64,000 nucleotides of DNA. It comes from a virus (taxonomy: Duplodnaviria; Caudoviricetes). This document shows positions 4,270-56,026 of this stretch, in pieces (the stretch's first letter is position 1; every line of letters begins with the position of its first letter). The stretch spans positions 1 through 64,000 of the IMG/VR virus record IMGVR_UViG_3300001528_000208; one strand, written 5' to 3'. The position numbers were made by a program, and so were the translations under genes. The notes under the pieces were generated by a model. It was not told the origin of the DNA. It did no database searches and was given only the letters and a program-made list of their open reading frames with translations.

Positions 4270-6932
4270 TAATCAATAACGATTACGATGCGCGTATAGA
4301 TAATGCTGAATACACTGTTTCGCAAAAAGAAGAAATTAAACACATGGTCATTGATGGCTTTGTTCTTAACGGCGTGAAGTTCGTAATGAGTGAACGAAGT
4401 GCCAGTATGACAAGAAATGCAATCCTTGGCTTTATTGATGCTTCTGTTGCTGGAAAAGTCGATAAGCATATTACAATGGATTTGGAAATGAAAAAGACGG
4501 TTCTTTCAAAGTGGTGCGCTTATCGTGGTCTTATGTTTAGTTCATGCCATTGTCTTGACGGCTGGCATCCCAAGACAATCGTTGTGCCTGACTACGAAAC
4601 CGTAGTTCCACATCAGAAGCTTCGTTGGTTGGTAGAAGAAGAACGCGAATATGCTGACAAGGAAACTGGCGAAAAGCGTGTCTGGAAAACACATGGAATC
4701 GAAGAGGGGTACAAGGACGTTCCGATAAACGTTTTCGACGGGCACGGATTTATTCATCCAGCGCTTGTTGATGAAGTTCGCGACCGCATTGGAATGGAAG
4801 AACGTCCTACGACCATGATGTTGCGTGCGCCTTTCATCAAAGGTCTTGTTAGCGAAATGGACTACACGACCTACTATCACGACCACGATGTTGACTTCAT
4901 TCAAGACGTTTGGGGCAAATGGCATTCTGTCGATGAACCAATGATTGTTCTGACAGTTAGTATGTATAAGGGGTTTAAGTATTTCAAACAGACCGGCACC
5001 AACCAAGATTGGGATAACTACTGGAGTAAATTTCAGAAGTATGGGCACTGCTGGGGTGTTGCCAAGTGGAATTTTACAGAAGAACAAGAACCCGTGTATA
5101 CTCGTGGCAACTACCAGATTCTGCAAGACCTTGACTTGCCATTTGAAGAATTCCAGAAGCTTGCAAGCAAGTCAATGAACTGGGCGGAAAAGATTGTTAA
5201 TGGAGACCCATTTTACACATACTGTTTCCTTGGTCTGGCGAATGATAATCCGAAGCCGCTTAACAACTATGCACGCGCCATCATGAAGAATCCTGAAATG
5301 ATGAAGGAACAAAGTGTTCGCGACTTTCTGAAGCGTCAAGTCAGAAAGTACATTGATAGCATGAAGTGTGGAAAGATTTATCTTCGTGCTTGCTACAAAT
5401 TCCTTATTCCAGACCTAATCATGATGCTTGAATGGATTGGTGGCGATAAGAACCCAAAAGGCGCCCTTGAAGCTGATGAATTTTGGGCTAAGGGTTACGA
5501 AGGTGAACACGCCATTGAACGTAACCCGCATATTTGTAAAAGCGAACATCTTATCCTTAAAGCCAAGCACACCGACGAACTTGAACGCTACTGTGGTCAT
5601 TTGGTGAATACTTGTATGCTGAATGGTAAAAGTCCAAGTCCGCAACGAATGAACGGTGCCGATTAGCACCTTAAAATAGTCCGCCTATGTGGTAACATAT
5701 AGGTTGTACGGCGTGAACCCTTATCAGGGGTGTCAAAGCGACGATTAGTAATCGCAGGAAATGGCGACCAACGCTTTGGCTAACAGGGAAGGCTACTTGA
5801 TAATCCTGTGCCAAGCCTTAAATGGAAGGTCAAGAGACTAACGGTGATGAGTGTAACCGTGTACGGCAGCTATTGATACGCCGCTGGAAGTGCGCCGCCG
5901 CCCTATGGGTGGAAGATATAGTCCACTGTGAGAACAGTGTATGACGGAGATTTAGTTCTTCTGATGGATGAACCCTTATTCCTTGAAGGAACCGATAAAG
6001 ATTGTGCAATCGTTCTTAATCTTGACGAAAAGCTTACTGCGCTTGCGGAAGATGTCACAATCGAAAACATTGCAAGTCTTGTTGAACGAACTCTTGTATC
6101 GTTGATTGGCGAAGATTCAAATGCGGCAACGTGTTATCATAACAAAATCACAAAAAAGGAAAGCCAACAGAAGCGTTACGAAACGTATGTTGATATTCTT
6201 TCGATTGTTAATTCGTTCGCAATCGACTTTGCCAAGACTGGCTACATCATGCAGATTCCGTTTGAAATAGCAAAGTATTCCAAACCATATCCATACTTCA
6301 TGCGATATGTTGGTGAATACTACAACAAGCTGTTTGAATCAATGGAACGTTCGCAAAGCACATACCGTTTTAGTCGTTCACGAAGCAACATGAACCAGCT
6401 TGCGTTCATGATTGAAAAGTTTCACGACCGTGAAATCAAATGGAAGCGTGCAGATGCGTTTGATTACACGATTATGGTTGATAGCGATGTTGAAGTTTTG
6501 CCCGAACATTTTGAAGCTATCGAAAGCGTGTATAAAGACTTCAACAAAGAAATGAAGTATCTTGTCACATTTGAAAACAAGCTTCATCGCTATGATGAAT
6601 TCAAAGACGAACTGAAGGCGTGGGACAAGGAGTCTGCAATGAACTATTACGTTAATTGGGATTCTGTGTACTCAAAGTATAGAAACGAATGCGCAAAGAT
6701 TTGTCCTGACAAGAAAGAACTTGCCAACATCGCAGTTAAGCTGTGTTATGAAAAGTATCCGAAACGCGGAAAGAAGTTTATCTGGTCTTGTGCATCCGAA
6801 GGTGTGCTTGAAAATATCAAACAGGTAGAAATCATGTTGCCTGTAAAAAATCCAACTGGCGAATACGCATACCTTGGTAAGCGGTATGATATGATTGTAT
6901 ATAATGGTGAAACGGTTGGTTTAGACGGCTGA
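4221..6932 (+). CDS. YonO-like single-subunit RNA polymerase (cellular-RdRP fold); spliced, exons 4221-5663 + 5940-6932, about 811 aa
   Basis: FDGHG, RAPFIKG, RNPH motifs; joining the exons restores GADYDGD (DxDGD metal-binding site); position upstream of HU-like and head genes matches SPbeta yonO. Confidence 0.88.
5664..5939 (+). ncRNA. group I intron (276 nt, no ORF) in RNAP gene
   Basis: Exon ends in U, intron ends in G; P7 GACTA/TAGTC; S element AAGATATAGTCC; IGS ATAGTCCGC (5676-5684) pairs across the joined exons. Confidence 0.9.
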
Positions 6933-10850: not shown

Positions 10851-13800
10851 CTACAATCCGTTTGGTAGTAATGCAAATTCTGCGGATATTCGCAAAAGAC
10901 CGCGTGGCATTATTAAAAAGACGGAAATTAGCGAGAGTCGCCTGAAACGAATCAAGGATTGGGCAACGCTATATCGGCGCAACATTCAGCTGTATGCTGA
11001 ACACTATTTTCAAATCAAGACGCTTCACGACTATCAGAAGATGATGCTGTACGAAATTGGTGCGAAAGATGAAATTACCATTTCAGCATCTCGTGCAACT
11101 GCAAAGTCGTGGATTGTTGGTCTTGGCGCTATCTGCATTGCGTCTCTTTATCCTAAAAGCGAAATCGTCATTGTTGCATCGACCAAAGGTCAGGCTGGCG
11201 TTATCGTTGGCAAGATTCAAGGCTTCTACGACGACTATCCGAATATCCAGCGTGAAATCACGAAGATAACTAACAATGAAAACAACCGTATTGTTGAATT
11301 CTTAAATGGTTCCAAAATTACGGTTGTTGCGCTTTCGGATAACTCTCGTGGTATTCGTTCGACCTGTATTATTCGCGAAGAATGCAACAGCATGAAGCGT
11401 AAGGATTTGCTTGACTCTGTTATCGCACCTATGCGCTATGTTCGTCCCGCGCCTTTCCGACGATTACCGCAATACAGCCATCTGACAGAAGAGTCGAAGA
11501 TGATTTCGATTAGTTCTGCTGGATTGAAAATAAACTGGTGGTATCCATACACGCTTCAACAGATTGTTATTAGCGTGTTTGGCGATAAGACTGGTATTCA
11601 GTCTAAGGACAGCACGGTGTTCATGGCATTTGACTATTTGACAAGTCTCGAACATGGCATCAAGTCGCCGCGTGAAATTGCGTCTGAACGTAAAGCGTCT
11701 GACTATATATCATTAAGTTTTATACTTACTTAGTGCGCTACAACGGGAAACCTTGTAGTGTATGTTCCTGAATTGCTGGAAAACCCTTAGAGCTTTACAG
11801 CCACAACGAAAGAATGAAACACGTCTAATCGTGAAGGTTGAAAATTGTAAAGATTGGGCAATCAGCAGCGAAGCCCCGAACAGGGGAACGTTCAACGACC
11901 ATCCGCTGAAATGCGGTTAGGCACAAGTGTGCCGAAGTGGGAACCGCCTAAACCGAAAGGCATGGCGAATGATATGGTCTATACATATATGAAAGTATAT
12001 GCACACATTTAATCGGATTTTTAAAGCTGGACAGCGGAGTAGCTACCGTTTTCTACACCCTTCGTAGAATTACAGCTTTGAAAATAAATATACTTGAAGG
12101 GGATTTATTATGTTATCGGTCAATGAAAGGAATTTGAAAATCGTTGAATCTTATCAAAGTGGCAAAAATTTGAACGATGTGTCCAATGAATTTGGTGTAT
12201 CCGTTGGAACGGTTTTAGCTGTTTTACAAGAAGCAAATGTTTCTATCAGAAAATATAGAAAAGGTCGTTCTAAATTTACGCCAGAACAAGACGCCGACAT
12301 TGTTGAAAGATATAAAAATGGAGAAAAGACGTGCGATATAGCAAAATTATACAATGTTAGCCAAAGCTGTATCGTATATAGACTTCATAGAAGTGGTGTC
12401 GTGCTTGTTACAAAGGTTGACGACTCTGTTTTTGATAAGATAGATAGCGAAGAAAAGGCATACTATTTTGGACTTATCTGTGCGGACGGCTGGATTTCAA
12501 AGCTTGACACGACGCCATATGTTGGACTTTATCTAAAGGCAGAAGATAAAAATATCGTAGAAGGATTTATGAAAATGTTCTGCGACAAGAAGATACGTCC
12601 TGTTAAGCATGACGGTGTTGTTGTCGGCTATCAGGCTGATGTATATTCCAAACGGCTTGTACAAAAGCTTATTGAATATGGCATTGATAATGATAAGTCT
12701 CATACGTTAAAGTTTCCGACTTGTGTGCCAGAAGATTATTTATGCGACTTTGTTCGCGGATATTTTGATGGCGATGGAAGCATTTCTGGCTATCAAACAT
12801 CGTTTGTTGGGACAAAGTGGTTTATAGAAGAACTTATTCAGATTATGTCCAAGAACGCAAATGTTAGCAACAGGGTTACACCTTTTCCCGTAAACGCTGA
12901 TAAGGGGAATGTGATTACGAAGTCTATTGCGTGGTCTGGAATAAATCAGGCAAAAAAGATTCGCGACTGGATGTATAGGAATGGTTCTTCAACGATTTAT
13001 ATAAAAAGAAAACATGACCGATATTATTCCATTGATTAAATGTGTGGGGCGTGTCTAACGAACGCGTCTTACTGAAATAGTTTCTACTGAGTACCAAAAT
13101 TTGCCTTATGGCATTGATGAGAACGCATTCTTTTCTTATGATGACTTTGATAAAGCGCGTGTTTTGAAGCAGGCGTTCTATCCGAAGCGCCCCGAAGAAG
13201 TTGCTTCTGGAAAACAGAAGTATCGTATGCCAAAGGTTGCCGGCGAAATTCGTTTGGTCGGTGTTGACTTGGCGTCTTCTGCCGCTCGTGGTTCGGATAA
13301 CACGGCAATCAATGTCGCGCGACTTATTCCGAAGCGCGGAAAAGGATATGAACGACAGGTTGTGTATTCTGAAATTTCCAATGGTGTTGGTGCTCCTGCA
13401 CAGGCGCTTCGTATTCGTCAAATTATGACGGATTTTGAAGCGGATACGCTTGTAATGGACTTCCGAAATCTTGGTAATGCGATTTTCAATATCATGACCG
13501 ATGTTATCCATGATGATATTCGTGGTATTGACTATCCGCCAATAACGGTTGCTTATCATGAAACCATCGCGCATAAATACGAAGAGTATATGCAACAGAC
13601 AATCAATCCCAATGCGATTCCTTGCATCTATCCTATTTATGGTACTGCCGAACTGAATAGTAAGATGGCAGTTATCTTTAAGGATAAACTGAAGACTGGC
13701 ATGATTAAGCTTCTTGAACAGCCAGACGAAGTTGAAAAGGACTTTGCAAAGGATATTGGCTTTAGATTCTACACTGACGAAGTTGGCGATTGGGGTGGAA

Positions 13801-38765: not shown

Positions 38766-39782
38766 ATGCCTATCTTTAATCAAGGTACTGGTGGCGGCGG
38801 CGCAAGCCTGTCGCCTATTATTGTTGTTTCTGCGCCGACCGGAAGCACTGTTACCTGCAAGAAGGGTTCTACCGTTCTGACTGCGGAAGAATCTTCTGGT
38901 ACTTGGTCGTTTGCTATTCCGGCATATGGCACGTGGACGGTAACTGGCATAAGTGCTGGAACTACTGTCGAAAAGACGGTTGAAGTGACTGCCATTGAAG
39001 TTTATTTCGTCGCACTTGAATTTATTCCAGCCGTTCTCAATAATGCGACATGGGCGCAGGTTAAGCAGGCGTCCGATTCTGGTGTTGCGTCCAACTATTG
39101 GTCTGTTGGTGATACCAAACAGATTACGATTAACGGCAAAGTGTCCGACGGTCTTACGCTGTCGAACTATTCCACCTATGTATATATTATCGGGTTTGAC
39201 CACAACAGTTCTGTCGAAGGAACCGGCATCGCCTTTGGCGGATTCAAGACTGCTGCGTCTGGTGGAACAGATGTTGCGCTTTGCGACAGCGGATACAACA
39301 CAAATAAAACCAGTGGTCAGTGGTTCAACATGAACAATGACAATAGTACAAGCGGCGGCTGGGCTTCCTGCAATATGCGTAACAATACTTTGCCGCTGGT
39401 CAAGGCTGCGATGCCAAGCGACTTGCAGTCTGTTCTTAAGACGACCACGATTTACACGGATAATATTGGCGGTTCGTCTACCGCCGCAAGCTATGTGACT
39501 GCCACGCAGGATGAATTATACCTTCTTGCCGAATGGGAAATCTTTGGTGCGCGCACATACGCCAACACTGCTGAACAGACGAAACAGCAGCAGTATGCCT
39601 ACTATGTCGCCGGTAATTCGAAGGTTAAATACCACCAAGATGGTGGTATTGCCGCGTATTGGTGGGAGCGTTCCGTGAATGCGACGAACTCCAACGCTTT
39701 CTGCCGTGTGAACTCCAACGGTGCTGCCGGCCGTAACAACGCTAATTTTTCGTATGGGTTGGCCTTGGCTTTCAAAATTTGA
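38766..39782 (+). CDS. DGR target: tail receptor-binding protein with CLec-like (DUF6273-type) domain
   Basis: C-terminal WWERS...FC.V...G...GLALAF encoded by the VR. Confidence 0.88.
   Translation: MPIFNQGTGGGGASLSPIIVVSAPTGSTVTCKKGSTVLTAEESSGTWSFAIPAYGTWTVTGISAGTTVEKTVEVTAIEVYFVALEFIPAVLNNATWAQVKQASDSGVASNYWSVGDTKQITINGKVSDGLTLSNYSTYVYIIGFDHNSSVEGTGIAFGGFKTAASGGTDVALCDSGYNTNKTSGQWFNMNNDNSTSGGWASCNMRNNTLPLVKAAMPSDLQSVLKTTTIYTDNIGGSSTAASYVTATQDELYLLAEWEIFGARTYANTAEQTKQQQYAYYVAGNSKVKYHQDGGIAAYWWERSVNATNSNAFCRVNSNGAAGRNNANFSYGLALAFKI
39649..39768 (+). repeat. DGR variable repeat (VR)
   Basis: 120-bp copy of TR with 14 mismatches, all at TR adenines. Confidence 0.95.
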
Positions 39783-40439: not shown

Positions 40440-40559
40440 TTGCCGCGAATTGGTGGGAGCGTTCCGTGAATGCGACGAACTCCAACAATTTCTGCAATGT
40501 GAACACCAACGGTACTGCCAACAATAACAACGCTAATAATTCGAATGGGTTGGCCTTGG
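40440..40559 (+). repeat. DGR template repeat (TR)
   Basis: Non-coding copy with 15 AAY codons (34 adenines) aligned to VR. Confidence 0.95.
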
Positions 40560-40786
40560 ATTCGATAGTATTGGGTTAATCAAAAACTTCTTGAAAGTTT
40601 TACGACCCTTATTAAAGGAGAAGCATTTCCCGTGAAGGTGTATTCCTTCCAAAACAACCCCGCGATACTGTTGCACGGACGCTTCTTGCATGGTCGAAAG
40701 GCAAATTCGATTTCATGTGTAACAGTTATGCAAGTAATCTATGCGGGATTGGTTATACCAAGTCTTGTACACGGGGTATTTTATTT

Positions 40787-41956
40787 ATGAATAGTGCGCA
40801 AAGACACGAATTTCGATATTATAGGCGTAAAGAAAAGCGTCTTTCGAAAAAGATTAAACGATGCGAAGCTATCGGTGGAATAGATGGTGTATTTACATTT
40901 GGCGATTTATATAAATGCGGCAAAGCGTGCTGTAATGGCGTTCGGTGGAAGCATAGTGTGCAAAATTTCGAAATGCACTTGTTTTCAACTACGGTTAAAT
41001 CGTTGGCTGACGTAAAGAACGATAAATGGGAAAGCAACGAATATTTCAGATTTGTTTTAACGGAACGTGGTAAAACACGCGATATTGATGCGCCCAAAAT
41101 TGTTGACAGGCAAATCCATAAAGCTATTACGCGAAACATTCTTTTGCCGTTATATACACCAATGATGATTTACAATAATGGGGCAAGTCAAAAAGGAAAG
41201 GGATTCCACTTTAGCTCAAATGAACTGAAGAAAGATTTGCGTGAACATTTTAGGAAGTATGGTCGTGAAGGTTGGATACTTCTAATTGATTTCAAGAAAT
41301 TTTTTCCAAACGCAAAACACGCAAATATATACAATAATCATGAAGAATTAATTTTTGATGAAAGATTGCGTAGATTGTGTGATTATGTTGTTGGATTTAA
41401 CAATAATTCTGGATTTGGTATGCCGCTTGGCGTAGAACCAAGTCAAGCGGAAATGATTTTCTTCCCATGGAAACTTGATTGCTATTTAACGTGCCAATGT
41501 GGATTTAGTGGATGCGGTCACTATATGGATGACTATTATATTATAATACCGCCAACGATGAATCCGCATGATGTTCGTGCGAAAGTATTATCTTTTGCCG
41601 AATCGCTTGGAATAAGAGTAAATCGCGATAAATCATACTTCGTTAAACTTACAAAATCGTTCCGATATTGTAAAATACGATATCGACTTACGGATACTGG
41701 TGCCGTTAAAACACTTGGTAGTAGACCTGCTTATAGGCGAGCTGCAAGGAAAATTCGTGCATTTAAACGCATGGTGGACGAAGGCAAAATGAAATATGAG
41801 GATGTCTACTGTTCTATGAATTCTATAATATCGTATTTCGATAATTTCGACGACAATAACCGTTCTTTTAGATTGAAACGATTGTTTGTTAAAACGTTTG
41901 GATTTAAATATGACGACCTAATGACATTTAGAAGGAGGGATTTCTATAATGTATAA
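40787..41956 (+). CDS. DGR reverse transcriptase
   Basis: ERGK.R.I, DR..H, KGKG.HF, IDFKKFF, GMPLG...SQ, YMDD. Confidence 0.93.
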   Translation: MNSAQRHEFRYYRRKEKRLSKKIKRCEAIGGIDGVFTFGDLYKCGKACCNGVRWKHSVQNFEMHLFSTTVKSLADVKNDKWESNEYFRFVLTERGKTRDIDAPKIVDRQIHKAITRNILLPLYTPMMIYNNGASQKGKGFHFSSNELKKDLREHFRKYGREGWILLIDFKKFFPNAKHANIYNNHEELIFDERLRRLCDYVVGFNNNSGFGMPLGVEPSQAEMIFFPWKLDCYLTCQCGFSGCGHYMDDYYIIIPPTMNPHDVRAKVLSFAESLGIRVNRDKSYFVKLTKSFRYCKIRYRLTDTGAVKTLGSRPAYRRAARKIRAFKRMVDEGKMKYEDVYCSMNSIISYFDNFDDNNRSFRLKRLFVKTFGFKYDDLMTFRRRDFYNV

Positions 41957-49980: not shown

Positions 49981-51012
49981 GTGATTTTTAACAGATATGC
50001 ACGTGGCGGTGGTGGCGGTGGACTTGGCGCGTTGATTTACGTGACGGTCGAAGCTGGCAGTACCGTAACGGCAACCATGGGAACAATGACACGCAACGCC
50101 GTGTATAGTCAAGGTGTTTATGTGATTGATATTCCCGCATTTGGCGATTGGGTTGTAACGGCAACAAAGGGCGCGAATACGGCAACGGCGACCGTTTCGG
50201 TGACGAAGGCGGGGATGTATGAAATCACGTTAAAGTATATTAGTGCGACGCTAAACGACAATGATTGGGCAACGATTTGCGATATTGCAGACGCAAATGA
50301 AGGCTCCAATTATTGGTCTATCGGAGACACGAAGCAAATCGTAATTAACGGTAAACTTTCCGACGGATTGACCCTATCAAACTATTCTACATGGGTTTAC
50401 ATTATAGGCTTTGACCACAATTCGTCCGTTGAAGGCACGGGCATTGCGTTTCAGGGCTTCAAGACTGCGCAAACGGGCGGCATTGATGTGGCGTTGGTTG
50501 ATAGTGGGATTGACTCTGCTAAAACCAGTGGTCAGTGGTTCAATATGAATAACGCATCCACGATAAGCACCGGTGGTTGGAAAGATAGTTTGATGAGAAC
50601 TGTAACGATTCCAGTTGTAAAGTCTGCTTTCCCGAATGACTTGATATCCGTTATTAAAAAGACTAATATTTACAGTGATAACACCGGTGGTGCAAGTGAA
50701 GCTGCATCATATGTCACTGCTACGCAAGACGACCTATATCTTCTTGCTGAGTACGAAGCGTTTGGTACAAGAACTTATGCTAATACTGCCGAACAGAATT
50801 ATCAGCAGCAATACGCCTACTACTCGTCTGGTAATAGTAGAATTAAATATCGCCACAATTCTACTGCAACTGGCGTGGTTTGGTGGGAACGTTCCGTTCG
50901 TGCAGCATATTCTGGATATTTCTGTAGTGTGGGGACTGCTGGAGATCCTTTTATTGGACAGGCGAGTACCGACCGTGGTCTTGCCCCGGCATTTAAAGTT
51001 GGGGGGGGGTAA
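49981..51012 (+). CDS. second CLec-like receptor-binding protein, paralogue of the DGR target; ends at a G9 tract
   Basis: Long identical peptides shared with 38766-39782 (e.g. YIIGFDHNSSVEGTGIAF, KTSGQWFNMNN). Confidence 0.85.
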   Translation: MIFNRYARGGGGGGLGALIYVTVEAGSTVTATMGTMTRNAVYSQGVYVIDIPAFGDWVVTATKGANTATATVSVTKAGMYEITLKYISATLNDNDWATICDIADANEGSNYWSIGDTKQIVINGKLSDGLTLSNYSTWVYIIGFDHNSSVEGTGIAFQGFKTAQTGGIDVALVDSGIDSAKTSGQWFNMNNASTISTGGWKDSLMRTVTIPVVKSAFPNDLISVIKKTNIYSDNTGGASEAASYVTATQDDLYLLAEYEAFGTRTYANTAEQNYQQQYAYYSSGNSRIKYRHNSTATGVVWWERSVRAAYSGYFCSVGTAGDPFIGQASTDRGLAPAFKVGGG

Positions 51013-51704
51013 CAACTAACCCTATTTCTGACCTGTCTGTTGGTGATTCGGTTTATATAAAGGAAGACGGAACCGATGTTGAATATCTGATTGTCCATAG
51101 GGGTAATCCAGATTCTTCTGTGTATGATTCGTCTTGCGATGGAACGTGGTTGTTACGCAAGACAGTATTCCCGAATGTCGCTTGGAACGCTACAGCTTCG
51201 TCCAACTGGACCACGTGCGACGTTATGAAGTGGTTGCGTGACACGTATCCATCTACTACCAATGTTTCGTCTATAATGAACACAGCAAAGGTACCATATA
51301 TTGGAACACAGATGAACCAGATTATTTCTGGGGCAAATGGAAACGCTGCCAAATGTTTCCTTCTTAGTAATGCTGAAGCTGGATTCCTGACCGACACAAA
51401 CGCAACGAAATCTTTGAATGTGTGTGGCGCCAAGCTTGATTATTTTGATGAAACATCAACCACTGTGGCATCCAGTAAGCGCATTGCCTATAGTTACACT
51501 AATGCATCTACTGCTGTATCTTGGTGGTTGCGTACTCAGCCGCTGTCAAATCAAAGCAACGCAGAGTTTTGTGGCCTATATGGTGGCCATGGTCACGGCA
51601 GCGTGACGTATACGTCTGCGATGGGACAGGTATTTGGCGTTCGTCCGTGCTTCATTGTTCCGAATGATACGCTAATCGACAGTAATCACAATATCGTCGT
51701 ATAA
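51009..51704 (+). CDS. additional DUF6273/CLec-like domain in the -1 frame, reachable through the G tract
   Basis: Frame open from 50997; LSVGDSVYIKE.G...EY...H.G.P...YD.SCDGTWLLRK lies upstream of the first usable start; WWLRT...GVRPCF ending. Confidence 0.75.
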   Translation, partial: VTTNPISDLSVGDSVYIKEDGTDVEYLIVHRGNPDSSVYDSSCDGTWLLRKTVFPNVAWNATASSNWTTCDVMKWLRDTYPSTTNVSSIMNTAKVPYIGTQMNQIISGANGNAAKCFLLSNAEAGFLTDTNATKSLNVCGAKLDYFDETSTTVASSKRIAYSYTNASTAVSWWLRTQPLSNQSNAEFCGLYGGHGHGSVTYTSAMGQVFGVRPCFIVPNDTLIDSNHNIVV

Positions 51705-51712
51705 AGAATAAC

Positions 51713-51741
51713 TTGACAAAAATCAAACCGTGCGCTATAAT
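51713..51741 (+). promoter_or_regulatory. sigmaA promoter
   Basis: TTGACA-17-TATAAT. Confidence 0.8.
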
Positions 51742-52207: not shown

Positions 52208-52236
52208 TTGACAAAATATTGTTTGTGTGCTATAAT
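52208..52236 (+). promoter_or_regulatory. sigmaA promoter of tnpB, with upstream TTTACA-N5-TTTACA repeat (52181-52197)
   Basis: TTGACA-17-TATAAT with TG. Confidence 0.85.
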
Positions 52237-52264: not shown

Positions 52265-53356
52265 ATGGTAAACAGGTTTAAGACGGAGATTTTTCCAGAC
52301 GAAAATCAGCACAAGTTATTCCTTTATTTTTGTAACGAATATAGGGAAATGTGGAACTATACGGTTGAAAAATTTCGGGACAATTATCCTATTGTTTACA
52401 AGAATGGAATTAAAGGATTCAAACCGTCTGATTTATTCAAGGAATCTAAGAACAAATGTTTGCAAAGAATAGCGGTTGGTGTTATAAAGAATTATGCCTT
52501 TGCAGTCAAAATGTTCAAGCTTGGTATTTGTAATAAGCCAAGATTTCATAAATATAACCCAAACAAACAATCATTCTATCTTGCGTGTCATAAGTTTGAA
52601 ATAACAAGACTTAGTGAAGATGAAGTGATTATTGGTAAAAATGGCGTTTTTCGATGGATTCGCCTTGACGTAGAAGTTATAAACAAATACGATATCAAAG
52701 AAATACGTGAACCAGTGTTTTCTTATGAAAATGGCAGGTGGTATATCAGTGGTGCGTATAGGGTTGAAGCTGCACCGCGTCAAGGTCGCACAGAATTCAT
52801 TGGTCTTGATTGGGGAATTAAGAATTTCATGACAACATCAGATGGTCAATTTATAAATTACCCGAAGTCTATAAAAAGGGAATATCAACGTGTCAAAGTT
52901 TTGCTTAAACATCTTAACAAAAAGCAAAAAGGTTCTCGAAATTATATTAAGATGATAAGAAAGTGCCATAAAGCGATTCGAAGAATTGAACATTTGAAGC
53001 ACAATTTTATAGAACAAGAAACGACAAGATTGTGTAGGCAAAACAATATTGCTGTTGAAAAATTTCCACCAACCACTTATAAAAGATTTAAATACGTTGA
53101 ACGTGTTGCACCACGCGGAAGATTTGTTGTAAGACTTGCGCGAAAATGCGAAAAGTTTGGCACCGAGTTTATGGCTGTTCCGCCGCAATATACAAGCAGG
53201 ATTTGTAGTTGCTGTGGTTTTCAAAAGAAAAGCCTTAAATTATCTGAACGTGTTTATAAGTGTGAAAACTGCGGAGTTGAAATTGACCGTGATGTAAATG
53301 CGGCGCGAAATATCGCCGCAATGGGTGTTCGCAGCATCCACAAGCCTATAGAATAG
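52265..53356 (+). CDS. tnpB: TnpB-family RNA-guided endonuclease; no transposase in window
   Basis: IGLDWG (RuvC-I), IAVE (RuvC-II), TSRICSCCG...CENCG Zn finger, DRDVNAARNI (RuvC-III). Confidence 0.88.
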   Translation: MVNRFKTEIFPDENQHKLFLYFCNEYREMWNYTVEKFRDNYPIVYKNGIKGFKPSDLFKESKNKCLQRIAVGVIKNYAFAVKMFKLGICNKPRFHKYNPNKQSFYLACHKFEITRLSEDEVIIGKNGVFRWIRLDVEVINKYDIKEIREPVFSYENGRWYISGAYRVEAAPRQGRTEFIGLDWGIKNFMTTSDGQFINYPKSIKREYQRVKVLLKHLNKKQKGSRNYIKMIRKCHKAIRRIEHLKHNFIEQETTRLCRQNNIAVEKFPPTTYKRFKYVERVAPRGRFVVRLARKCEKFGTEFMAVPPQYTSRICSCCGFQKKSLKLSERVYKCENCGVEIDRDVNAARNIAAMGVRSIHKPIE

Positions 53357-53698: not shown

Positions 53699-56026
53699 TT
53701 GAATATTAGCATCAATCTGGACAAAGATTTTAGCGAAAAATTTAATGAACTGCGTGAAAAATATGGCGATGAAATTGCAAAGCTGAATGGATTTTCCGAC
53801 GAACAGCTTAGTTATACAGACTTCATTGATAACTTTGTTGATAAAAATACGGTGGCAGACGCCAGTATTGACGGCAATGCCAATGTTGGTGCAAAAGATA
53901 TTTGTTCGCTTGATAGCGAAATGAATAAGCCACATAGCAAGTTGCTGTCCTTCAACAAGGTCTATTACGAAATGAAGAAAAAGTATGGCAAGGATATTGC
54001 TGATAGATGGTTAGAATACGAGTGGATCGGAAAATTTTACGCTCACGATTCCCCAAGTTTGTCGCAGAAAAGTTATTGTTTTGCGTATGACCTTGAAGGT
54101 TTGGTAAGTAAGGGGCTATATTTTGTTCCTAATTTCAATGGTCAGCCGCCTAAGCATCTTGTAACATACACTGATTTCGTTGGTGAATTTGTTTCTTATG
54201 CAAGCAATCGTTCTTCTGGCGCTTGTGGACTTCCCAGCTTCCTTGTATATTCGTTCTACTTCTGGAAGAAAGACGTAAAAGATGGCTACTATACTGGTAC
54301 GCCTGAAAGATATCGCGACCAAGAGTTCCAAAGAATCACCTATAAGCTGAACCAGCCGTATTTGCGTGTTAATCAAAGCGCGTTTACAAACTTTTCTATT
54401 TTTGATAGACCGTATTTCGAATCGCTTTTTGGATACAAAACATTTCCTGATGGTGAATTCATGATTGACTATATTGATGAATTTATGGAATATCAGAAGG
54501 CATTTATGGAAGTTGTGTCAAAAATTCGCGAACAGAATATGATGACTTTCCCGGTGCTTTCATTTTGTCTTCTTCGTAAGAATGGAAAGTTTGTAGACGA
54601 AGATTTTGCGCGCTGGTGCTGTAAACACAACATGAAGTGGGCGGATTCCAACTTTTTCGTAAGCGAAGATGTCACATCCCTTTCAAACTGTTGTTTTAGC
54701 GGCAACACAATGTTTATGACGACTGATGGCATCAGAAGATTTGATTCTTTTAAAGACGGCGATTCCATTGTCGTTCCGTGCATCAATGGTTCCAACAATA
54801 ATGCAGTTGTCCATACTTATGGCGAACAAAGACTATTCCGCATCAAACTTTGCCGTAATGGAAAGCATAGAGATGTATTGACCACCAGAAATCACAGGTG
54901 GATTCTTGACGGAAATACGGAAACAAACTATCTTTCTGTTGGCGATGTGTTAGTTAAATCTGCGCATGATACAGATGATGGGAATTGGTCTGTTGTTGAT
55001 ATTGAAGATACTGGAATTGTAGAAACTGTTTGGTGTCTTGATGTCGAAAATGAACACAATTTCATTCTTGCGGACAACATTCCTTGTGGGAACTGCCGTC
55101 TTGTTTCTGATGTAAAGAATTTGGGCTATTTCAATTCTATTGGCGGGACCGCGCTTGAAGTCGGTTCTGTCAAGGTAAACACCATCAATCTTGCAAGAAT
55201 CGCCTATGAAACGAAATCTAAAGAAGATTATCTAAAGCAGCTTTCTGATGAAGTTGTTCTTTGCTTGCAGATGCTTGATGTGGTGCGCCACATTATCACG
55301 CGCAATATCGAAAAAGGACTTCTGCCGAATTATTCTTATGGTCTTATGCACATGAAGTCTCAGTACAATACCATCGGCATCGTCGCCCTTTATGAAACCT
55401 TACAGGAGTTTGGTATGACGCACAAGGATAAACTTGGCTATGCGCATTACACCGACGAAGGTATCGAATTTGCAAAAGATATTCTTCATACCATTAACAA
55501 GGTAAAAGATGAATTTGTTGCCGACAAGGATTATTCTGCGAATCTGGAGCAGATTCCCGCCGAACGGGCGGCAAGCATTCTGATGCAGAAAGATATGGTT
55601 TTCTTCCCTGATGAAGCATACGACCTTCCGCTATATGGCAACCAGTGGATTCCGCTTGGTGTAAAGACCACGCTTGAAGAAAAGTGCAAGCTTAGTGCGA
55701 TTCTTGATAAGGCGTGTAACGGTGGCAGTATTGCGCACATCAACATTGATGCACCGTTCAATAACTTTGACACGGCGTGGAATATGCTGAACTATGTCGC
55801 CGACAGTGGCGTCCCTTATTTCGCGTTCTGCACCAGAATTTCTGCCTGTGAAGAAAATCACGGATTCTATGGCGACAAGTGTCCTATTTGTGGCAAGCCG
55901 AAGGTTACGACTTATCAGCGCGTGGTTGGTTTCTTAACACCTGAAAAGACATATTCTAAGGAACGCAAGGCTGAATTTAAGATGCGCGACTGGTTTGACC
56001 TGAACGCAATCTGTGATACATTATGA
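53699..56026 (+). CDS. nrdD: anaerobic ribonucleoside-triphosphate reductase with intein
   Basis: SNC|CRL after intein removal, NTINLAR, EQIPAE, GGSI.H, CPICG, RVVGFL glycyl-radical motif. Confidence 0.92.
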   Translation: MNISINLDKDFSEKFNELREKYGDEIAKLNGFSDEQLSYTDFIDNFVDKNTVADASIDGNANVGAKDICSLDSEMNKPHSKLLSFNKVYYEMKKKYGKDIADRWLEYEWIGKFYAHDSPSLSQKSYCFAYDLEGLVSKGLYFVPNFNGQPPKHLVTYTDFVGEFVSYASNRSSGACGLPSFLVYSFYFWKKDVKDGYYTGTPERYRDQEFQRITYKLNQPYLRVNQSAFTNFSIFDRPYFESLFGYKTFPDGEFMIDYIDEFMEYQKAFMEVVSKIREQNMMTFPVLSFCLLRKNGKFVDEDFARWCCKHNMKWADSNFFVSEDVTSLSNCCFSGNTMFMTTDGIRRFDSFKDGDSIVVPCINGSNNNAVVHTYGEQRLFRIKLCRNGKHRDVLTTRNHRWILDGNTETNYLSVGDVLVKSAHDTDDGNWSVVDIEDTGIVETVWCLDVENEHNFILADNIPCGNCRLVSDVKNLGYFNSIGGTALEVGSVKVNTINLARIAYETKSKEDYLKQLSDEVVLCLQMLDVVRHIITRNIEKGLLPNYSYGLMHMKSQYNTIGIVALYETLQEFGMTHKDKLGYAHYTDEGIEFAKDILHTINKVKDEFVADKDYSANLEQIPAERAASILMQKDMVFFPDEAYDLPLYGNQWIPLGVKTTLEEKCKLSAILDKACNGGSIAHINIDAPFNNFDTAWNMLNYVADSGVPYFAFCTRISACEENHGFYGDKCPICGKPKVTTYQRVVGFLTPEKTYSKERKAEFKMRDWFDLNAICDTL
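54692..55093 (+). mobile_element. mini-intein (134 aa) in NrdD
   Basis: CFSGNT start, TRNHRW block B, VWCLDVENEHNF block F, ends GN before Cys; no endonuclease domain. Confidence 0.88.

Follow-up and report, generated by a model that had tools for sequence, protein, structure and literature searches.

At position 51,001 of an uncultured gut phage sequence, a run of nine G residues separates two open reading frames (ORFs), and the question raised by this locus is whether these are two genes, or one gene in which the length of the tract decides how much is translated. The question bears on the persistence of gut phages with hosts that change their surfaces. In what follows, "the window" is the whole stretch of DNA analysed (64,000 nt), taken from the start of an IMG/VR virus record of 104,805 bp with a completeness rating of 98%.

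Anatomy of the G9 junction

The features at and around the junction are listed below, where the asterisk in peptide sequences stands for a stop codon.

49981..51012, + strand: module A ORF, 343 aa, GTG start; N-terminal beta-sandwich plus DUF6273-A; ends AFKVGGG*
50994..50996, + strand: TAA closing the -1 frame on the 5′ side; bounds the 13-nt shift window
51001..51009, + strand: G9 homopolymer tract; inter-domain linker; the in-frame lengths are G10 (VGGGV) or G7
51010..51019, + strand: TAACAACTAA, with stops in both off frames (TAA 51010-51012 and TAA 51017-51019)
51009..51704, + strand: module B coding region (-1 frame); 7-residue linker plus complete DUF6273-B/C-type-lectin-like domain
51713..51741, + strand: perfect sigma-70-type promoter match, 3′ of module B

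The module A ORF terminates with GTT GGG GGG GGG TAA (stop at 51010-51012), and its product is the short isoform encoded by the DNA as assembled. The -1 frame is open from directly after the TAA at 50994-50996 to the TAA at 51702-51704 (235 codons), and any change of frame leading into module B is confined to the 13 nt between 50997 and 51009. The addition of one G or the loss of two would fuse both modules into a protein of 574 or 573 aa, respectively. The TAA at 51010-51012 terminates the G9 state immediately, while the one at 51017-51019 would terminate a G8 state two codons on. All elements of this anatomy (the G9 tract, the ORF end, the -1 frame stop at 50994, the open frame to 51704 and the 13-nt window), as well as the frame arithmetic, had been put forward in an initial annotation made from the sequence alone, and we could confirm each of them. 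The two states would be distinguishable by their predicted tryptic peptides: VGGGVTTNPISDLSVGDSVYIK spans the junction in the long form, and VGGG is the C-terminal peptide of the short form. A scan of the junction found neither a promoter nor a terminator match in the stretch joining module A to module B. The G-tract gene lies downstream of an endolysin gene and two small genes and upstream of a gene for a 116-aa protein, and this gene order (endolysin, two small genes, adhesin, 116-aa gene) is common to several contigs of 85-112 kb.

Module B is a complete domain that begins upstream of any start codon in its frame

Both modules match Pfam profile DUF6273 (PF19789; cut-off 23.5 bits), module A with 36.1 bits (residues 195-340) and module B with 69.7 bits (residues 48-222 of the open frame). 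The earliest ATG, GTG or TTG codon in the module B frame is the GTG at 51120, which is codon 42 of the open frame; the public gene call for module B (P0003, 184 aa) begins at the TTG at 51150, codon 52. A search of 1.84 billion representatives returned 1,685 homologues of module B, and in the best 150 of these, inspected with its own gene call excluded, the alignments begin at open-frame residues 2-13 (mostly 8-13; one at 25). Seven residues upstream of codon 42 are invariant or nearly so in the homologue alignment: V15, G16, V19, G25, V33, G36 and P38.

In the confident AlphaFold (AF2) model of module B (pLDDT 89.6), two core strands fall within residues 18-36. Searched against the PDB with Foldseek, the model gave one clear match (9qa6), next to weak matches with FGE and C-lectin structures. 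VIA-align superimposed it on residues 32-304 of 9qa6 with Z 17.8 and an rmsd of 2.3 A over 183 residues, starting at model residue 7; 9qa6 is the IgA peptidase of Thomasclavelia ramosa, and the matched part is its N-terminal DUF6273 domain. The next matches were TvpA (2y3c; Z 6.5) and then more than 25 C-type lectin domains at Z 4.5-5.6. By its model, module B is a C-type-lectin-like fold, in agreement with the view of DUF6273 as C-lectin-like (PMC10743442). The profile, the alignments and the model thus uphold the original description of a second DUF6273/CLec-like domain, the conserved start of which precedes any usable start codon or ribosome-binding site (RBS).

For the lectin-like domain of module A, no confident structure model was obtained, and its DUF6273 profile match stands. 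A confident model of its N-terminal beta-sandwich comes from one relative only, P0235 (residues 11-80); as a whole, that protein's two-domain AF2 model is poor (mean pLDDT 49, alignment of 14 rows) and was used for the N-terminal beta-sandwich only.

The fused gene and its tract in related lineages

At least 24 relatives carry both parts in a single ORF, with the module A part showing 54-78% identity over the whole 343 aa; in 13 of these at least 24, module B follows directly after module A. Fused relatives share the same 7-residue linker (AFKVGG.VT.P.S), and the junction peptides AFKVGGGVTKPAS, AFKVGGAVTKPIS and AFKVGGVVTKPAS align residue for residue with the G10 reading of the window, AFKVGGGVTTNPIS. 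As judged from these sequences, the fused single ORF is the norm of the family. The nearest relative at the junction, L013 (93% identity over the 400 nt upstream), has G7-CA-G, a 10-nt in-frame tract, at the position of the window's G9. Given this tract and the matching linker, the junction in the window looks like a G10 tract minus one G.

The states of the tract at the homologous junction are the following.

In frame: L012, G9
In frame: L013, G7
In frame: L014/L015, L137 and L221, G8
Out of frame: the window, G9
Out of frame: L217, L218/L219 and L223 (three lineages, four contigs), G9 (GGC TAA)

As is characteristic of contingency loci, the length of the tract varies among related genomes and shifts the reading frame, here across nine lineages. 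Comparison of tract length among related genomes, one of the checks proposed in the initial annotation, shows a variable tract: the in-frame states comprise G7, G8 and G9, the out-of-frame ones G9. In the split relatives (L217, L218/L219 and L223), 603-629 downstream codons are open without any start codon.

The same scatter is seen in protein collections. Twelve protein clusters end at or just past the G-tract junction, seven of which (90%-identity clusters) end in AFKVGGG*, including those of L217, L218/219 and L223; three clusters with read-through tails represent the other off frame of the AKYTP-type continuation, and protein ends are found in all three frames at the junction. Stops right after the tract also occur in L012 and L013 (GTAACTAA), while AKYTP-type relatives have a stop in one off frame only (GGC TAA). 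In the window and the VTKP-type relatives, both off frames reach a TAA within three codons past the tract, so that the short product ends cleanly at the module boundary.

The closest in-frame/out-of-frame (ON/OFF) pair of relatives shares about 85% protein identity, and no such pair above 95% identity was found. The scatter reflects recurrent change between lineages rather than switching within one. Exact-flank pattern scans of viral and metagenome contigs revealed no near-identical genomes; module B as a query found no related locus in viral contigs, and blastn found none in cultured phages. P0003 forms a cluster by itself, and no entry of the protein collection is identical to the 343-aa product under that start.

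A loose pattern (AFKV followed by G6) was also tried on metagenome contigs and rejected: of its 120 loci, one was a relative (L137) and the rest were chance matches, e.g., to a helix-turn-helix motif, IPAFKVGGSWRF. L137 (ERZ808275 NODE_11608; contig coverage 4.6x) has its G8 in frame at the first junction, and its last module shows an internal deletion or a frame change past ...TLNVGNSVY*. The closest viral-contig relative of module A, with 83% identity, is L018 (IMGVR_UViG_3300012344_000001); its module A copy is cut at residue 224 by the contig start, i.e., this 107,954-bp assembly breaks inside the gene.

The tract is an outlier in its own genome

A census of G/C runs in the 104.8-kb genome counted five G5, no G6 or G7, one G8 and one G9 (51001-51009), and no C run longer than five. 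GGG is the rarest glycine codon in the genome (9.2% of Gly codons), and among 158 Gly-Gly codon pairs, the only two written GGG-GGG are both inside the G9 tract; the six-glycine run near the start of the same ORF (49981..51012) is written with GGC, GGT and GGA. The G9 tract thus has what is expected of a contingency locus in its genomic setting: it is a long homopolymer at the edge of a coding region and an outlier in the genome. A frameshift-like ORF layout occurs at one of the 60 homopolymers of six or more in the genome, the G9 tract. The same scan had flagged an A6 site at 85126, which was dismissed as an ordinary gene junction with an RBS and an ATG.

The only other long G/C run in the genome lies outside the window, a C8 on the minus strand at 103012-103019. 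It fills the spacer of 15 nt that separates a 200-aa ORF (stop TAA) from a 49-aa ORF (start ATG), sits where a ribosome-binding site is expected and may tune expression; no frameshift is involved.

A DGR-diversified sister gene in the same genome

The window includes a second gene of the same architecture, next to a DGR.

38766..39782, + strand: sister gene, DGR target, 338 aa; VR at 39649-39771
40440..40562, + strand: DGR template repeat (TR); differs from the VR at TR adenines only
40715..41956, + strand: DGR reverse transcriptase (RVT_1, E 1.5e-12)

The template repeat is followed by an accessory gene and the reverse transcriptase. The sister gene had been taken for a DGR target from the start, and the adenine-only differences between VR and TR, together with the adjoining reverse transcriptase, bear this out. 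The module A ORF is 58% identical to the sister product over its full length, and the latter ends in AFKI* at the point where the module A ORF ends in AFKVGGG*. The ORF at 49981..51012 does not itself behave as a DGR target: its 3′ end differs from the TR at many non-adenine positions.

Module-B-like domains occur near DGRs elsewhere. In FP_Toutatis (L006) and FP_Brigit (L007), a module-B-like DUF6273 domain is N-terminal in proteins annotated as "Hoc-like head decoration", directly 3′ of the DGR reverse transcriptase. In Toutatis, a 50-aa annotated "DUF6273 protein" between Avd and the reverse transcriptase lies where a template repeat would be expected and may be a TR read as a gene.

A probable slippage-driven contingency locus

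The explanation that best accounts for these observations, to which we assign a probability of roughly two in three, is that the G tract would be a slippage-driven contingency locus choosing between a short and a long modular adhesin. The two ORFs would constitute one modular adhesin gene of an uncultured gut phage of about 105 kb, laid out as an N-terminal anchoring beta-sandwich, module A, a glycine linker encoded by the G homopolymer, and module B. Polymerase slippage would alter the length of the tract, by which the population would mix two-domain (G10/G7) and module-A-only (G9/G8) genomes, with the assembled genome representing the short (OFF) state. The short product has the same architecture as the DGR-diversified sister protein. 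Slippage in this phage would be frequent and reversible, both isoforms would be carried on the virion, and the switch would alter the binding targets of the phage. In the OFF state, some of the long form may also arise by slippage on the tract at a low level, either during transcription or by the ribosome. The host is probably an Oscillospiraceae/Faecalibacterium-type Firmicute; prophage-borne relatives of the phage group sit in Oscillospiraceae genomes, and relatives of domain B occur in Faecalibacterium phages.

Alternative explanations

The split could be an assembly or sequencing error in a true G10, in which case the phage would constitutively produce the 574-aa two-domain protein. G10 would give exactly the linker length of the family and would equal the in-frame tract of L013, and no homopolymers are harder to call than long G runs. 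We nevertheless consider an error unlikely: the other 59 homopolymers of six or more in the genome break no gene, which implies an assembly without general homopolymer errors, and the same split recurs in at least three other sources (Logan SRR31227732; SRR31240010; ENA ERZ28621584 with Logan SRR9293393) as well as in many further protein clusters.

A recent, non-adaptive frameshift at a mutational hot spot, by which module B was lost and its frame has yet to decay, is equally improbable. A short form is viable too, since two relatives, L220 and L221, lost their downstream modules by deletion: at L220:4470-4560 and L221:4460-4600, only remnants of the linker (TITKPISS) or of a domain end (GVIRPALVLPSDTP) remain after the stop. 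What speaks against mere decay is, first, that the tract is kept against codon usage. A junction tract of G7-G9 persists in relatives with flanks of 65-93% nucleotide identity and an upstream dS of 0.74-1.05, i.e., across lineages with saturated synonymous sites, and the third positions of the junction glycine codons remain G in these diverged lineages; in the L012 paralogue, the terminal Gly-Gly is written GGC GGC. Second, the out-of-frame parts are open over 235-629 codons in all four split lineages for which DNA is available. Third, comparison of L217 with L223, both G9 OFF, over 618 out-of-frame codons yielded dN 0.0084 and dS 0.106; the dN/dS of 0.079, a constraint that would not outlast a dead frameshift, indicates that the downstream part is still in use.

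Programmed recoding would produce a fixed fraction of the long form from a stable G9, either by a -1 ribosomal slip (P-site tRNA-Gly re-pairing at the TAA) or by transcriptional slippage. G GGG GGG formally fits the slippery-heptamer pattern X XXY YYZ and is immediately followed by a stop codon, and the purifying selection on the downstream frame in OFF-state relatives would be expected under recoding as well. Programmed frameshift sites keep one offset, and the phage tail-chaperone G/GT genes are the familiar example of such recoding; to our knowledge, G GGG GGG is not among the efficient slippery heptamers. No stimulatory RNA structure was found 5-9 nt downstream of the tract: the stretch 51010-51100 folds worse than its shuffles (MFE -11.7 versus -15.4 kcal/mol, z +1.31). 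Instead of the single conserved frame offset of a -1 frameshift site, the relatives are in frame or require a shift of +1 or -1. The -1 ribosomal slip, entertained in the initial annotation as one route to the long form, is on these grounds less likely than either of the preceding alternatives. The varied frame offsets, the lack of a stimulatory structure and the lack of a promoter or terminator at the junction together favour DNA slippage over programmed frameshifting.

The least credible alternative, that module B is a separate gene with a start of its own (GTG 51120, TTG 51150, or TTG 50999, which is in frame with module B only when the tract is G8), can draw on the 184-aa product in public gene calls and on the separate proteins of the Faecalibacterium phages Toutatis and Brigit, but initiation at 51120 or 51150 would remove 34-44 conserved residues including the two core strands, a Shine-Dalgarno sequence at a usable distance is absent, and the downstream frames of about 600 codons in the split relatives have no start at all. 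We consider independent initiation of module B very unlikely, as the conserved residues and strands are encoded before the first start codon, and this likewise counters the objection, foreseen from the beginning, that the downstream ORF might be translated from its own start.

The contingency locus remains as the reading with the broadest support. The initial proposal that the G tract sets one versus two domains in a paralogue of the DGR target is sustained across relatives, by the fused forms, the kept tract, the mixed frames and the low dN/dS; what was proposed for one phage is thereby seen as a difference between lineages.

A second junction type with C tracts

Homopolymers recur on further linkers of the same adhesin gene family. 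At a second junction type, AFRV-CYTPP..., C8-C10 tracts show the same on/off scatter: L222 has an out-of-frame C10 at 4784-4793 (run SRR31242728), while L014 has an in-frame C8 at 12246-12253, which codes for A-P-P in the last linker of a 966-aa orthologue. Eleven clusters end in CYTPPSQ* or CYTPPPANK*, and P0039, P0255 and P0251 read through.

Tentatively, G and C homopolymers on successive linkers could act in combination to truncate the adhesin to anything from one to four modules in gut phages of about 105-112 kb, with clean isoforms resulting from the stops after each tract; alongside the DGR of the paralogue, binding domains could then vary within one phage population in how many there are as well as in sequence. 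We hold this wider scheme possible with distinctly less confidence than the switch at the G9 junction. The two-tier host-range system (domain switch plus DGR) that had been suggested for this phage is hypothetical.

Comparison with known systems

PolyG and polyC tracts are well known from the phase-variable surface genes of Neisseria, Haemophilus and Campylobacter. The slippage mechanism and the scatter of strains over three frames are alike, but in the bacterial genes the tracts are usually near the 5′ end, and the whole protein is turned off, whereas here prompt stops would give a defined truncated isoform.

Amongst DGR-diversified C-type-lectin proteins, Mtd of the Bordetella phage is the textbook case. 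The DUF6273 DGR-diversified phage proteins with a C-type-lectin fold have been named "tentaclins" (PMC10743442). The modules described here are of the same domain family and fold, and 38766..39782, the sister gene, is a genuine DGR target; the G-tract gene differs in being unmatched by the TR and in varying by frame, not by adenine mutagenesis.

The closest known case is that of the polyG tracts in receptor-binding-protein genes of Campylobacter Fletchervirus, which are hypermutable and 7-11 G long (Sorensen et al. 2021, Cell Rep 35:109214, as cited in bioRxiv 10.1101/2025.10.21.683753, PMC12823448). As far as that secondary account goes, both have tracts of the G7-G11 type in host-recognition genes, the length of which shifts the frame; there, subpopulations with different binding proteins result, while here, switching is deduced from relatives. 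In Fletchervirus, as summarised there, the gene is turned off, whereas here the tract lies on an inter-domain linker, where it would add or remove C-terminal lectin-like modules and leave a complete short protein. The present system also differs from the Fletchervirus one, so summarised, by its probable host lineage of Gram-positive gut anaerobes, by the occurrence of both G and C tracts at successive linkers, and by its DGR-diversified paralogue. In T2, T4 and other coliphages, homopolymer repeats in ORFs undergo reversible polymerase-slippage frameshifts considered as bet-hedging (Gomez, Barrick, Waters, bioRxiv 10.1101/2025.10.21.683753, a 2025 preprint that extends the concept of contingency loci to phages more widely). 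These too are slippage contingency loci in phage ORFs, but they are mostly repeats of six or more bases, spread over many gene classes and under-represented in tail fibres, while the tract here is long, a compositional outlier, and located in an adhesin gene.

New in the present case is where the tracts lie, on linkers within a modular lectin-like adhesin, by which modules would be added or removed and the gene not silenced. New too are that G and C tracts recur from one linker to the next, and that a paralogue is diversified by a DGR. Experimental proof of polyG switches exists for very few phage systems. In the present case, slippage tracts appear to be maintained on the linkers of a modular adhesin throughout a family of abundant uncultured gut phages, near a DGR. 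If so, these phages would have two independent routes of hypermutation by which to vary host recognition, and the tracts would explain gene-caller splits, "truncated" adhesins in databases (AFKVGGG*, CYTPPSQ*) and downstream ORFs that lack a start.

Neighbouring genes

Downstream of the adhesin gene and the 116-aa gene, a TnpB/IS605 OrfB-like gene (OrfB_IS605 plus a Cas12f1-like TNB domain) is located at 52265-53356, with a perfect promoter match upstream at 52208-52236. It is absent at this place in the syntenic relatives L014, L217 and L218, and therefore appears to have been inserted recently, separating the 116-aa gene from nrdD. The latter gene (53699-56026) encodes NrdD, an anaerobic ribonucleotide reductase in which residues 334-459 show a weak intein-splicing match (28.4 bits, below the cut-off). 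The NrdD of relatives is either 1,024 aa long with intein and LAGLIDADG matches, or in pieces (L221).
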